Shown: positions 5,987 through 11,819 of the stretch, piece by piece
Layout of the letters: each line of letters begins with the position of its first letter
How positions within the stretch are numbered: the stretch's first letter is position 1
IMG/VR virus record: IMGVR_UViG_3300025131_000017
Span: 17,556 to 81,555 of that record
DNA: 64,000 bases
Reading direction: 5' to 3' (one strand)
Source of the DNA: a virus
The notes under the pieces: generated by a model
What the model was told of the DNA's origin: nothing
What the model saw: the letters and a program-made list of their open reading frames with translations, nothing else
Database searches by the model: none
Made by a program: the position numbers and the translations under genes

Positions 5987-5998
5987 ACGATATATCGT
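5987..5998. repeat. palindromic element copy 1 (ACGATATATCGT)
   Basis: perfect 12-bp palindrome followed by AGGGAGACCATG. Confidence 0.9.
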
Positions 5999-6073
5999 AG
6001 GGAGACCATGTGGGAAAATTCTGGAAGAGAGAATGGTAGGGAGTCAGAATTTTAAGAGTCGGTAAAAAGGGGG

Positions 6074-6103
6074 TTGACAAAAGTTGTCAAGTTGTGATAG
6101 AAT
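6074..6103 (+). promoter_or_regulatory. sigma70-type early promoter
   Basis: TTGACA-N18-TAGAAT, TG extension; overlaps TTGACAA-AAG-TTGTCAA. Confidence 0.85.
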
Positions 6104-6134
6104 AATATTATAATAGTTAAATAAGGAGAACTAA

Positions 6135-6527
6135 ATGGGATATACAAATTATTGGTATCAAAAAGAAAGTTTCACAAAGGGAGAATGGGATGTTCTAAAA
6201 GAGGTGGCGAACAAACTTATAGAACCTTTTAGAAATGATTTAGATATAGTAGAAGATGACGAGAACGTTATTAATTTAAATGGTGTGGGGGAAAACTCTC
6301 ACGAAACTTTTATTCTTACTAAAGAAAAAAGAGAGTTAGATGATTGGGAAAAAAAGTCTGACTGGATTGTGAACGATTACAAAGAAAAGGGTGCATTTAG
6401 ATTTTGCAAGACTAATAGAAAACCTTACGACATAATTGTTTGGAATATTTTATTAAAGGCATATGAGATTGCCCCAATCAAACTTAGTATTTCTAATGAT
6501 GATGGGGAAAAACATGGTTCACAATAA
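6135..6527 (+). CDS. conserved phage hypothetical protein (MGYTNYW...FCKTNRKPYD)
   Basis: AAGGAG RBS; motif recurrent in phage early genes. Confidence 0.85.
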   Translation: MGYTNYWYQKESFTKGEWDVLKEVANKLIEPFRNDLDIVEDDENVINLNGVGENSHETFILTKEKRELDDWEKKSDWIVNDYKEKGAFRFCKTNRKPYDIIVWNILLKAYEIAPIKLSISNDDGEKHGSQ

Positions 6528-6548
6528 TAAAAAAGAAATATAAAAGAC

Positions 6549-6578
6549 TTGACAAAACTTGTCAACTTATGGTATACT
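6549..6578 (+). promoter_or_regulatory. sigma70-type early promoter
   Basis: TTGACA-N18-TATACT; TTGACAA-AAC-TTGTCAA. Confidence 0.85.
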
Positions 6579-6623
6579 AATAAGTACAAGATAAAGAAAG
6601 AGAGAACAGGAAGGAGAAATTGT

Positions 6624-6797
6624 ATGGTGATGAAAGAAAAGGAACTTTGTACACACAAGTGGGAAAGTCTTTGTTGTAAAGAAGAAGAACAAGATAACCT
6701 ACAATTCATCTGCCCAAAATGTTTTGGGTGGAGCGACATGAAGTGTTTCAAATGTTATAACTATAAAAGGAGAGAAGTAAATGAAAACGGAAAATAA
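6624..6797 (+). CDS. small Cys-rich early protein
   Basis: AAGGAG RBS before ATG 6624; CC, CPKC, CFKC. Confidence 0.65.
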   Translation: MVMKEKELCTHKWESLCCKEEEQDNLQFICPKCFGWSDMKCFKCYNYKRREVNENGK

Positions 6798-6948
6798 TAA
6801 TGACTTACTAACAAAAGGGATTGAAGTGGCACTGGTTGATACAATTAAAAAAAGTGCAACACCTTTGAAGATGCACATTTCAAATAATCGTGCTAGTATA
6901 ATTGCAAAAGTAATTATGAATGAATGGGAAATAGAACCTAAAAACTAG
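6781..6948 (+). CDS. small early hypothetical protein (MKTENNND...)
   Basis: AGGAG RBS; read by hand. Confidence 0.65.
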   Translation: MKTENNNDLLTKGIEVALVDTIKKSATPLKMHISNNRASIIAKVIMNEWEIEPKN

Positions 6949-6958
6949 GAGTAATAAA

Positions 6959-7177
6959 ATGGAGAATGTGGATAGAAAAATCTTTGATGAACTATTCTAC
7001 TTTAAACAAGAAGTGGAAAAGGAACTCAAAGAATTGAGGGGAATTATGGGAGAACTTATACAAGTAATTAACTCGTTAAAGGAAAACTCTAATAAAGAAA
7101 TCCTAATGATGAAAGACTTACTAGAAAAGTTTACTGATGAGAACAACTTTTTGAAACATGAACTAACAAAGAAATAG
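6959..7177 (+). CDS. small coiled-coil early protein
   Basis: AGGAG RBS; heptad pattern. Confidence 0.8.
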   Translation: MENVDRKIFDELFYFKQEVEKELKELRGIMGELIQVINSLKENSNKEILMMKDLLEKFTDENNFLKHELTKK

Positions 7178-7200
7178 AAAATAGGTTCACTCAAAAACAA

Positions 7201-7232
7201 AGATGCCCAATCGAAAGGTTGGGTATTTTTTT
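7201..7232 (+). terminator. intrinsic terminator
   Basis: AGATGCCCAATC-GAAA-GGTTGGGTATTT followed by T run. Confidence 0.85.
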
Positions 7233-7284
7233 GTCTTCTTCACCAGCATGGGACCGGCAGCATCACCGGAAAAAACAGCTCCAC

Positions 7285-7296
7285 ACGATATATCGT
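7285..7296. repeat. palindromic element copy 2 (ACGATATATCGT)
   Basis: followed by AGAGCAGACCATGCGGGAAAA, similar to the copy 1 flank. Confidence 0.9.
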
Positions 7297-7413
7297 AGAG
7301 CAGACCATGCGGGAAAAATACTGGAGGAAGGCTGGATAAATTCTGGAGAAATTCTAAGTAGACCTTTTTTACGAGGTGTGATAAAATATAAGTATAAGGA
7401 GAAAAGGAAACCA

Positions 7414-7500
7414 ATGATTATTAAACTACTCAAAAAGTTTAAACTACCAATATATGTTTTGGGCATAATTGGATTAACTATTATTAATGTTATTTATTAG
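7414..7500 (+). CDS. 28-aa basic/hydrophobic membrane peptide
   Basis: AAGGAG/AAGGA RBS; MIIKLLKKFKLPIYVLGIIGLTIINVIY. Confidence 0.6.
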   Translation: MIIKLLKKFKLPIYVLGIIGLTIINVIY

Positions 7501-7509
7501 GAGGCAACA

Positions 7510-9962: not shown

Positions 9963-9998
9963 AGAACCCCCCTCCTGCAAAATTTTACAGGGGGTGAT

Positions 9999-10033
9999 AA
10001 AAAAAGAAACCCCAACCTTTCGATTGGGGCTTC
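9999..10033 (-). terminator. intrinsic terminator
   Basis: GAAGCCCCAATC-GAAA-GGTTGGGGTTTC followed by T7; near-identical to the 7201 terminator. Confidence 0.85.
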
Positions 10034-10212
10034 CCGTGTTTGATAGTTTCCTATCTTACACAATCCAAGGAGAATACATGGATTTGTGGTGAACTCACTT
10101 CCTGTACTACATGGGGGTTATTTCCCCTCGCTTAGTGTGAGCCTCTTCTCTTGTATTATAGGATGCTTATAAACCCACCCCACAGGAATCAGACCATTAT
10201 TACTTCCTTGAT
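9999..10212 (-). ncRNA. putative structured non-coding RNA (about 210 nt)
   Basis: own promoter and terminator, no ORF behind the RBS-like site (ATG-GTC-TGA), several stems including a GAAA tetraloop. Confidence 0.55.
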
Positions 10213-10218
10213 TATTCT

Positions 10219-10246
10219 ATTATAACATTTCTTTCCTTTGTGTCAA
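10219..10246 (-). promoter_or_regulatory. sigma70-type promoter
   Basis: TTGACA-N16-TATAAT with TG. Confidence 0.7.
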
Positions 10247-10288
10247 GGGGTTGGAACTACCTTTCCTTCCCCTCGCCACTCGGTTGTT

Positions 10289-10975
10289 CTATCGGTTCGC
10301 TTCAAAGAATGCTTTCGCAAATCCTTGAGGTGTGATACTTCGATAGTACTTCCTTCCTAAATCTTTCCCACTAGGAGTCGTAAATTCTCCCTTGTCTATT
10401 TTATTCTTATAGTACAAACCACTCATTGGTTCTTTGATTCTTTCCCCTTTTAATAAAGGTGAACCCTCGAACATGTTTATCTTTGATTTATCATAAGATT
10501 GTTTTGTGGGTTTGTTAAACCATCCCCATAAATAAGTGTACTTAGAATAGTAATCACCAAATTCATAAGGGTGAAATTTGAAGAGAGGTTCTCCCAAAAA
10601 CTTCTTTAGTTTACCTACGGGATTTTCCAATGCAAACCATTGTGGTTGAAGTGCATATGCAATTCTAAAACATGCATCCACGACTCCTATGCCTTCCACG
10701 ATTTGTTGGTCACTTCTCTTCCATGCATTTCCTGCAATCGAAAAGTAAGTACAATCTGGGGCGGCAAGAATGCCTCGAACTCTCCCTTGATACTTCTTTA
10801 TATCTATCCATTCTCCATTGCCTCGTGGTTCGTCTGAAGATTGTGATGGAAATAATCTTACATCATATTGTGGAAAAGTAATTGGTATAACTTCATACTC
10901 TCCACTTTCGATATAAGGAATTTCCCAACTTCCACTACCACTACAAAGGGATAGGATAATTGGTTTCTCATCCAT
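10289..10975 (-). CDS. short C5-cytosine DNA methyltransferase-like protein
   Basis: LSLCSGSGSW (motif I-like), GILAAPDCTYFS (IV), ALENPVG (VI), RSITPQGFAKAFF C-terminus. Confidence 0.75.
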   Translation of the reverse strand: MDEKPIILSLCSGSGSWEIPYIESGEYEVIPITFPQYDVRLFPSQSSDEPRGNGEWIDIKKYQGRVRGILAAPDCTYFSIAGNAWKRSDQQIVEGIGVVDACFRIAYALQPQWFALENPVGKLKKFLGEPLFKFHPYEFGDYYSKYTYLWGWFNKPTKQSYDKSKINMFEGSPLLKGERIKEPMSGLYYKNKIDKGEFTTPSGKDLGRKYYRSITPQGFAKAFFEANR

Positions 10976-11017
10976 ATTATTTTCTCCTTGTTGTATGGTT
11001 TTATACCTTACATTATT

Positions 11018-11046
11018 AGTATAACATTTTTAACCGATTGTGTCAA
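11018..11046 (-). promoter_or_regulatory. sigma70-type promoter
   Basis: TTGACA-N17-TATACT with TG. Confidence 0.8.
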
Positions 11047-11245
11047 TATCATACTTCCATCCTTTTGGGGCTTTGATATCTCCATTTTCAATCATTGCAT
11101 GTGCGATTCTACCAAATCTTCCTTGTAAAGACCATGCTAATCCTGTATCTACAAGATGTTGCCATGCTTCCTTAAGTTCTTCTTCAGTACCTTCTATTAT
11201 TCCTTCCGCTAGTTCAACGGCAGTTATATTATCCATCTTAATCAT
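11030..11245 (-). CDS. conserved small phage protein (AWQHLVDTGLAWSLQGRFGR)
   Basis: GAGGAGG RBS; recurrent phage motif. Confidence 0.8.
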   Translation of the reverse strand: MIKMDNITAVELAEGIIEGTEEELKEAWQHLVDTGLAWSLQGRFGRIAHAMIENGDIKAPKGWKYDIDTIG

Positions 11246-11427
11246 TAAACTTCCTCCTCACAAACATCCCCTTTGTTCAACCAAGTTCCATGTTCACACT
11301 TGTCTATGATTTCCCAGTTGTCCATGTCGGCTCTACGAAGACCATTTTCTATAAGTTGTTCTAGTTCTTCATGGGACCCACTAATTGTGATTTCACTATA
11401 TTCCACATCTTGATTACATGTTGCCAT
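11245..11427 (-). CDS. small acidic hypothetical protein
   Basis: AAGGAG RBS; coupled to the next gene. Confidence 0.75.
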   Translation of the reverse strand: MATCNQDVEYSEITISGSHEELEQLIENGLRRADMDNWEIIDKCEHGTWLNKGDVCEEEV

Positions 11428-11458
11428 ATCTTTTTCTCCTTGTAACTATTATATTAAT

Positions 11459-11487
11459 ATATTATAACAGTTGGTAAAAAAAGTCAA
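11459..11487 (-). promoter_or_regulatory. sigma70-type promoter
   Basis: TTGACT-N17-TAATAT. Confidence 0.7.
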
Positions 11488-11495
11488 GGGGGTAT

Positions 11496-11741
11496 AAAAA
11501 AGAAACCAGCTATGTTCACTACTAAGATTATTATTAGTGACTTTCATAACTGGTCTCTAGTGTGGAATGTTTTAAGAAGGTGCAATGCATCGTAAATCAT
11601 TCCTTCCTTTGCTTCCTTGTATCTCTTTCCCTGCGCTGAGAAGAGATGGTTCCACTACAGCAAAAGCAGTTTAATGACATAATGTATTAAGAGAAGCTTT
11701 CTCATCTTCAATCCCATACTATTACTTAGGTCAGTTCCATA
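11496..11741 (-). ncRNA. putative structured non-coding RNA (about 245 nt) with 5' pseudoknot
   Basis: own consensus promoter, ends in a long hairpin plus T run, only ORFs of about 20 aa or less seen, multiple stems. Confidence 0.6.
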
Positions 11742-11746
11742 TTATT

Positions 11747-11775
11747 ATTATACTACACTTTTTAGTTTTTGTCAA
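11747..11775 (-). promoter_or_regulatory. consensus sigma70 promoter
   Basis: TTGACA-N17-TATAAT. Confidence 0.85.
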
Positions 11776-11805
11776 CTCCCGCATCAAGGTCTAAAAATAC
11801 CCCCG

Positions 11806-11819
11806 TACGATATATCGTA
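11806..11819. repeat. palindromic element copy 6 (TACGATATATCGTA)
   Basis: perfect 14-bp palindrome between a terminator and a promoter. Confidence 0.9.

Follow-up and report, generated by a model that had tools for sequence, protein, structure and literature searches.

In dispersed operator arrays, among them the C1 operators of P1 and the KorB sites of RK2, many transcription units are controlled together by a protein bound to the DNA. The stoperators of Cluster A mycobacteriophages also form such an array and are, as their abstracts describe them, asymmetric, distributed genome-wide and aligned with transcription, their ligand being the immunity repressor of a temperate phage (PMC9283540, PMC6550527). 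Another repeated design is the promoter-early stem-loop (PeSL), presented in abstracts as a composite terminator/promoter motif of T4-type phages (PMC4122927, PMC2839356) in which a terminator stem-loop is combined with a conserved early promoter and repeated at the borders of variable open reading frames (ORFs) (PMC4122927). Here we describe an array of a short palindrome in the early region of an uncultured marine phage, IMG/VR record IMGVR_UViG_3300025131_000017, where most spacers between the terminator of one small gene cassette and the promoter of the next hold one copy. The window analysed is a stretch of 64,000 nucleotides, bases 17556-81555 of the 81,555-bp record, which is rated complete; positions are those of the window, and this phage is called G000 where it has to be told apart from its relatives.

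Six palindromes in the early region

The 10-mer CGATATATCG has six matches in the window, at 5988, 7286, 8544, 9448, 9952 and 11808, whereas the mean over 100 dinucleotide-preserving shuffles was 0.00 and no shuffle exceeded 0. A preliminary description of this DNA had placed the core at these six sites and nowhere else in the window, which is borne out by our results: the 12-mer RCGATATATCGT is exact at all six starts it had named (Table 1), and the sole additional place, both with up to one mismatch in the window and with two mismatches allowed in the whole record, is 52962. A count over the full 81,555 bp rendered the same six copies of the 10-mer and none of its reversed control, and the 8-mer core GATATATC was likewise restricted to the six sites. 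Four copies read ACGATATATCGT and two read GCGATATATCGT, and four of the six show perfect dyad symmetry over 12 bp. The copies are single, spaced by at least 504 bp, and the array is confined to 5987-11818, a 5.8-kb early region. When the six spacers are aligned by transcription direction, 11 letters are invariant (ACGATATATCG) and otherwise only short words are shared, except for a longer 3' flank that is common to copies 1, 2 and 3 and inverted at copy 3, as was first noticed by reading.

Single-strand folding of the copies is weak (-1.2 to -3.4 kcal/mol, z +0.13 to -2.84), so that a duplex-DNA site is likelier than a hairpin; the earlier view that the element acts as DNA agrees with this, duplex bound by a protein being the most likely form. 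Scans of the window against Rfam and for tRNAs rendered no matches, and neither did a near-identical search of a phage collection with 5000-12500. No phage regulatory element appeared in the titles and abstract openings of the literature on the exact 10-mer, the terminator-site-promoter layout not having been searched more broadly.

The early region is composed of very small cassettes on both strands, those on the + strand running from 5383 to 8480 and those on the - strand from ~12740 down to 8823, so that the two series converge on a 340-bp non-coding stretch with copy 3. Cassettes open with near-consensus sigma-70-type promoters, several of them 11/12 or 12/12 plus a TG extension, and close with a hairpin and T-run terminator. 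A terminator lies 18-60 nt upstream of the site, on the transcribed strand, in all six copies, and a promoter-like site follows within ~110 nt in four of them (copies 1, 2, 5 and 6, that of copy 2 being weak). The placement in terminator-to-promoter spacers that had been proposed is therefore right in outline, as is the location of copy 3 between two convergent terminators; the array is also limited to the region of strong sigma-70-type promoters, consistent with the proposed confinement to the probable first-expressed region. The statement that there is one element per junction applies to most junctions but was slightly too strong, since a terminator abuts a promoter with no palindrome, by reading, near 11490 and at 12750-12790. 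Because these two abutting junctions hold no copy, the element goes with the GC-richer spacer and not with every junction.

A strain-variant contig (L424), the sole contig rendered by a pattern scan of metagenomes, covers 1364-10047 at 88-98% identity. In this comparison 60 of 60 letters are identical in palindromes 1-5, versus 742/794 (93.5%) in the rest of the five spacers, and by our own arithmetic the chance of 60 unchanged letters at the spacer rate is ~0.02 for this one strain pair. In this one pair of strains, the difference points to purifying selection on the palindromes.

Table 1. Positions of the palindromes, terminators and promoters of the early region
Feature	Position	Strand or series	Description
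Copy 1	5987-5998	+ series	ACGATATATCGT; T-run end 39 nt upstream; -35 starts 81 nt past site centre
Copy 2	7285-7296	+ series	ACGATATATCGT; 44 nt behind T-run; weak promoter-like 7359-7387 (9/12) downstream
Copy 3	8543-8554	+ series	ACGATATATCGT; 57 nt behind T-run; extended flank in - orientation
Copy 4	9447-9458	- series	GCGATATATCGT on +, ACGATATATCGC along - transcription; 60 nt behind T-run; none found in promoter scan downstream
Copy 5	9951-9962	- series	GCGATATATCGT on +; 34 nt behind T-run; promoter 9845-9816 downstream
Copy 6	11807-11818	- series	ACGATATATCGT; 18 nt behind T-run; directly behind GP88-family gene
Terminator closing first + cassette	5916-5953	+	10-bp stem, 4-nt loop; script and reading, missed by terminator scan
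Terminator before copy 2	7199-7238	+	Terminator scan
Last terminator of + cassettes	8451-8486	+	Terminator scan
Last terminator of - cassettes	8823-8854	-	Terminator scan
Terminator before copy 4	9525-9558	-	Terminator scan
Terminator before copy 5	10004-10035	-	Terminator scan
Terminator before copy 6	11843-11876	-	Terminator scan
Sigma-70-type promoter after copy 1	6074-6103	+	11/12, TG-extended
Sigma-70-type promoter after copy 5	9816-9845	-	10/12
Sigma-70-type promoter after copy 6	11747-11775	-	12/12
Two near-identical promoter repeats	7630-7659 and 7938-7967	+	Promoter scan

Other features of the same region were noted. Two - strand units, 10004-10246 and 11490-11775, have perfect or near-perfect promoters (10246-10219 and 11775-11747) with terminator-like hairpins ~190-250 nt downstream and no convincing ORF between; they have no Rfam match and may be small non-coding RNAs. 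Directly before the first + early promoter (5383) there is an odd G-rich, repeat-like non-coding stretch (5150-5350), which may represent a genome end or have arisen in assembly; the strain variant has ~280 extra bases at 5381, and one contig of run X14 has a poly-C loose end at 5327. The word AGTCGGTA (context GAGTCGGTAAA) was noted on the + strand at 6057, 8610, 8627 and 9568; it is exact three times in the window, always within the array region and on the + strand, and at one mismatch it shows no enrichment (28 found versus 23 expected).

Arrays and site forms in relatives

An exact 14-mer scan of viral contigs rendered 103 places, with four loci carrying at least two copies of the 10-mer. 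Arrays of the same 12-mer, in the order terminator, palindrome, TTGACA promoter, are present in L131 (genome G007) and L142 (G008), and in G007 the distance from T-run to site is 6-14 nt (5 measured) and that from site to -35 is 25-69 nt (7 measured). G007 and G006 are syntenic with this genome, with the GP88-family and capsid-side genes in common and a DUF932 identity to this phage of 52% and 64%, respectively. From loci gathered through the DUF932 alignment, 28 sources were read for the core GATATATC. Nine of these hold at least two family-type copies, namely G000 (6), L303 of G007 (7), L310 of G006 (7), L308 (4), L307 (3), and L287, L305, L306 and L321 (two each); a single one was found in L291 and L304, only unrelated core matches in L288 and L296, and no core in the remaining 15, many of which are fragments short of the early region. 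Single-protein searches for relatives rendered 0 with GP88, 2 with DUF932 and 1 with the methylase-like protein, while capsid-centred loci and five long capsid-bearing records, which stop short of the early region, showed no motif.

The form of the site depends on the lineage: ACGATATATCRT in G000, G007, G008 and L287; WTGATATATCAY in G006 and L291; GGGATATATCCC, followed by a conserved C-rich tail, in L305, L306, L307 and L321; and YAGATATATCCC in L308. Whole-record counts of GATATATC against the reversed control were 9 versus 1 in G006 and 8 versus 1 in G007, both with an array, and 4 versus 3 in G014 and 1 versus 3 in G015, two complete genomes with no array. Relatives hence conserve the element at equivalent junctions, with the terminator-site-promoter layout, the same core and lineage-specific outer bases, and the original observation is real and larger than first seen: it concerns a family of dyad sites in which the GATATATC core is fixed and the outer bases are tuned to the lineage. 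Of the asymmetric direction-assigned copies, 8 of 8 from G000, G007 and L287 have the deviating, weaker half-site on the downstream side, against 1 of 3 from G006, which hints at a link between half-site asymmetry and transcription direction in copies that are not independent of each other.

Several other repeated words were found in these contigs. In L217, L222 and L227, which were reached by way of the WYL_2 protein, repeated CTTATATAAG words are iterons next to DnaA-box-like words and belong to an origin, not to the palindrome element. Behind the terminators of L296, L297 and L299 there are spaced inverted repeats, CATGATAA..TTATCATG, that fold well (-8.4 kcal/mol) and resemble spaced half-sites; they were discarded as an array, a strict pattern finding one each in G014 and G016. 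A second, directional element of 23 bp, AATTCATGAATTCCAAAGTTTAG, absent from this window, is present in G006 (L283+L284, 14333-22104), where its 12-mer has 13 matches with no more than one mismatch, versus 0 in the control, usually 26-29 nt before a -35 hexamer and with an orientation that follows transcription. In L090 (DUF932 72% identical), at 11700-14520, a TTATAAC..GTTATAA-like inverted repeat lies between the -35 and the -10 of the promoters downstream of DUF932 and is a different operator design in the same phage group. The unrelated viral contig L110 has two copies of the 10-mer (169 and 5693) in a long direct repeat with near-identical flanks ~5.5 kb apart, probably a terminal or assembly repeat and not the palindrome element.

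As for the phage itself, the only cultured matches of its capsid protein are haloarchaeal tailed virus capsids (~30% identity over 37% of the protein), and 471 relatives are found in the viral contig collection, the 80 kept being 85-100% identical; the phage belongs to a widespread environmental group. Its promoters, ribosome-binding sites and terminators are of a bacterial kind. It encodes a family A DNA polymerase, DnaB-type helicase, primase, ribonucleotide reductase, C5 methylase and NadA, as well as UvsX-like recombinase, Cas4-like and SbcD-like exonucleases, a DUF559 (Vsr-like) endonuclease domain and many small zinc-ribbon ORFs. The quinolinate synthase gene nadA (3627-4838, - strand) is an auxiliary metabolic gene and the sole host hint, its product being up to 70% identical to proteins of marine Chloroflexota/Dehalococcoidia (SAR202-type) metagenome-assembled genomes (MAGs); viral contigs found through NadA have only this protein in common with the phage and are otherwise unrelated. 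A TAGTATAAT-like word with no -35 occurs in 4 of the 18 middle and late gaps listed between 12000 and 64000, none of which holds the palindrome, and is a candidate promoter class for the sigma-70-family factor of the phage, a 185-aa protein with regions 2 and 4 (48848-49405).

A putative operator array and its alternatives

We tentatively interpret the six palindromes as operators for a dimeric DNA-binding protein that would shut off or insulate strong early units. The sites, their placement, their conservation and their variation between lineages, all of them seen in the sequence, lead us to infer binding of a protein and an effect of that binding. Early cassettes would be transcribed by the host RNA polymerase; once present, a dimeric sequence-specific protein would bind the duplex palindromes, one in most terminator-to-promoter spacers of the early cassettes, and would most likely switch off or insulate the near-consensus promoters. 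The bound protein could nucleate repression of the promoter 25-120 nt downstream, could hold RNA polymerase at the promoter, like phi29 p4, or could act as a roadblock immediately past each terminator. Phage repressor-operator pairs that co-evolve usually keep an AT-rich centre constant and vary the outer bases, and a phage-encoded binder is favoured over a host protein because the outer bases are lineage-specific.

A number of observations weigh against such operators. Site-to-promoter distances vary widely, and a helical phasing of sites and promoters gave R = 0.47 at 10.5 bp (n=15, p ~0.04), a value that 510 of 5000 random sets match when the period is scanned. It is unusual for repression to act from far upstream, activation is unlikely because the early promoters are already near consensus, and the complete relatives G014 and G015 lack any array. 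Moreover, among 89 ORFs compared with Pfam (25 of 34 families listed) there was no classical repressor helix-turn-helix, ParB, integrase or resolvase, and no cognate repressor was recognised among the phage ORFs by Pfam or PHROGs. The WYL_2, Sm-like 93-aa protein encoded at 8008-8289 is the sole early protein conserved across lineages; it is also present in the array-less complete genomes G014 and G015, its identity values do not track the site type, and its model (predicted local distance difference test, pLDDT, 86) is weakly like Sm, Hfq, WYL and Rof folds (best E 0.04), so that it was rejected as the binder on its predicted fold. The GP88-family protein (11926-12678) adjoins a site in G000, G007 and L287 and tracks the arrays, being present in G000, G006, G007 and L287 and absent from G014 and G015. 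Its model (pLDDT 93), TIM-barrel-like, with conserved cysteines and not DNA-binder-like, suggests an enzyme, and this protein too was set aside on its predicted fold.

Two small proteins found in array-bearing genomes only, a 50-aa DUF1660-like zinc-ribbon protein (17789-17941, based on weak small-protein matches) and an acidic coiled-coil protein (17966-18127), are leads only, with no DNA-binding family found for either. Of the two helix-turn-helix proteins that the preliminary description had pointed to, that at 27293-28627 is an SbcD-type exonuclease, and that at 50276-50665 has only weak matches to sigma-70 region 4 and HNH.

It is also conceivable, albeit rather unlikely, that the sites are homology islands or true recombination sites for PeSL-like exchange of early cassettes between co-infecting relatives, any binder being secondary. 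Variability is extreme in the early region, where hardly any ORF of this phage has a homologue in relatives whereas the flanking genes do, and the phage encodes the recombinase and exonucleases mentioned above. Compared with the strain variant, 8035-8551 is at 55-78% identity except for 40 nt (8432-8471) at 80% or more, and high identity resumes directly to the right of copy 3, with a sharp change of divergence at the left edge of this copy. Contig ends coincide with copies 1, 3 and 6 (5989 in run X6, 8541 in X4, 11807 in X14), with ~0.3 expected by our own estimate from the 64 ends listed, which come from 32 of 167 contig pieces and are ends of assembled contigs, not reads. In addition, an isolated match of 67 nt between L305 and L307 spans the element only, with unlike flanks; L305, L306, L307 and L321 are 66-86% identical to one another, too diverged for breakpoint mapping.

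On the other hand, the one clean cassette deletion, a variant in run X14 with no 7630-7937 and hence lacking a whole cassette (promoter and gene 7690-7926), joins 7629 to 7938 within promoter repeats that have 18 letters in common, and not at palindromes. The other variant boundaries are gene ends, terminators and promoters (5890, 6523, 7174, 7982, and 8866 to ~9055, with gene 8866-9033), and ~7392-7497 is missing from both X14 and L424. Twelve identical letters are very short for homologous exchange, and no site-specific recombinase is among the Pfam families listed. The suggestion that the palindromes are crossover points is supported in part, by one mosaic boundary, exactly at copy 3, and by the three contig ends, but not by the clean deletion or by most boundaries: the palindromes are sometimes mosaic boundaries, and not the main ones. 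Cassette exchange is a probable side effect or a rival; if the sites do guide it, this would explain the assembly breaks of this phage group in the early region.

The sites might instead bind a host protein, a global regulator or nucleoid-associated silencer that is recruited to the early region or titrated off the host chromosome, which we judge unlikely. No phage-encoded binder was found in the protein family searches, and a common host factor would explain why G000 shares its 12-mer with G007 and G008 although their proteins are 36-52% identical; the core is also, we presume, similar over 8 contiguous letters to a published high-affinity H-NS site. However, the outer bases differ between closely syntenic lineages and two complete relatives lack arrays. 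In the candidate host genomes, five SAR202-type MAGs, the 10-mer was found 0, 0, 0, 5 and 11 times versus 0, 1, 1, 0 and 1 for the control, and none of the six contexts read has the terminator-site-promoter layout, and one that was checked for ORFs sits inside a 364-aa ORF.

With regard to the operators, a wider form of the proposal, which we consider quite doubtful, would be a 'junction operator' located, in an abundant group of uncultured marine phages, at nearly every early-cassette boundary, its GATATATC core fixed and its outer bases re-tuned in each lineage; one protein would insulate or silence the cassettes and also define the units exchanged among relatives. If true, this design would be the promoter-containing counterpart of the cassette-plus-site design of integrons. 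A conserved, lineage-tuned junction site is also a handle to find the regulator and to delimit early units in metagenomic contigs, and would let the assembly of hypervariable early regions be studied.

It is improbable that the copies have no present function and are what is left, in decay, of a small spacer module that was repeated or mobile. Copies 1-3 do have a longer common flank, as duplicates would, and two junctions have no element altogether; nevertheless, the 12-mer is perfectly kept while flanks diverge and take indels, and the same core occurs in distant lineages with unrelated flanks. More improbable still are recognition sites of a site-specific nickase or endonuclease, or interruptions of virion DNA like T5-type nicks: in each of three runs a contig end falls no more than 2 nt from a palindrome edge, and the phage encodes the DUF559 domain and a weak HNH-like protein, but several contigs cross copies 2, 3, 4 and 5 unbroken and strain mosaicism explains the ends equally well. 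Finally, a promoter or promoter part used by the phage sigma factor or by a phage RNA polymerase that escaped recognition is highly improbable, since, despite the sigma-70-family protein, the 23-bp element of G006 that follows transcription, and a purine-rich run directly 3' of copy 1 that we take to recall the start region of T7-type promoters, the motif is symmetric and lacks a second conserved box at constant spacing, is missing from every middle and late intergenic region, has in G007 a G-rich flank that points against transcription, and is accompanied by no T7-like polymerase among the large ORFs.

Comparison with known designs

The suggestion that the sites are decoys for NrdR fails on several counts. 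NrdR boxes are tandem pairs ~three helical turns apart, located before ribonucleotide reductase genes, and the consensus used, that of the preliminary description, is a 16-bp dyad (acaCwAtATaTwGtgt) whose two w positions are A/T. The palindrome resembles it in having an AT-rich ATATAT centre in a dyad, and copy 2 also matches the outer ACAC, but the w positions are G/C in all six copies, outer ACA/TGT arms are found on only one side of copy 2, the sites are single, relatives change the outer letters, and no palindrome lies within 20 kb of the ribonucleotide reductase gene (31935-33863). A parS-like loading site, also suggested previously, is not supported either, since parS and KorB-type sites go with a ParB-family protein of the same replicon and none is among the families listed.

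Cro/cI-type operators and phi29 p4 sites are dyads of 12-14 bp in which the centre is AT-rich and the outer bases confer specificity, and p4, bound upstream of the -35, represses a strong early promoter. These sites overlap the promoter or sit at fixed, phased positions, whereas here the distance ranges from 18 to ~160 nt. The attC site of integrons is an imperfect palindrome of 57-141 bp that folds as a single strand and is used by the IntI integrase; here the core is of 12 bp, folding is weak, no integrase is listed and the cassettes carry their own promoters. In place of the ~20-bp asymmetric word of promoters for T7-type RNA polymerases, whose counterpart is not seen in the large ORFs, there are 11 invariant letters in a symmetric site.

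The array has in common with dispersed operator arrays the many copies of a short site, in intergenic spacers of one replicon and at variable distances from promoters. In contrast with the stoperators as described in abstracts, the palindrome is symmetric (in four of the six copies), confined to 5.8 kb and placed behind terminators, and neither an integrase nor a repressor was found. The likeness to PeSL lies in the small early cassettes of a hyperplastic region, which have a terminator and a conserved early promoter at their borders, and in part in indels by recombination between repeats, of which the joint in the promoter repeat is an example, while one divergence boundary is at palindrome 3 and the others are at gene ends. 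It is the cassettes, with their terminators, near-identical promoters and two abutting junctions, that correspond to PeSL, and not the palindrome, which is a third, separate component between terminator and promoter, with the clean deletion joint elsewhere. Set beside the abstracts of stoperators and PeSL, the closest known designs, the element differs from both.

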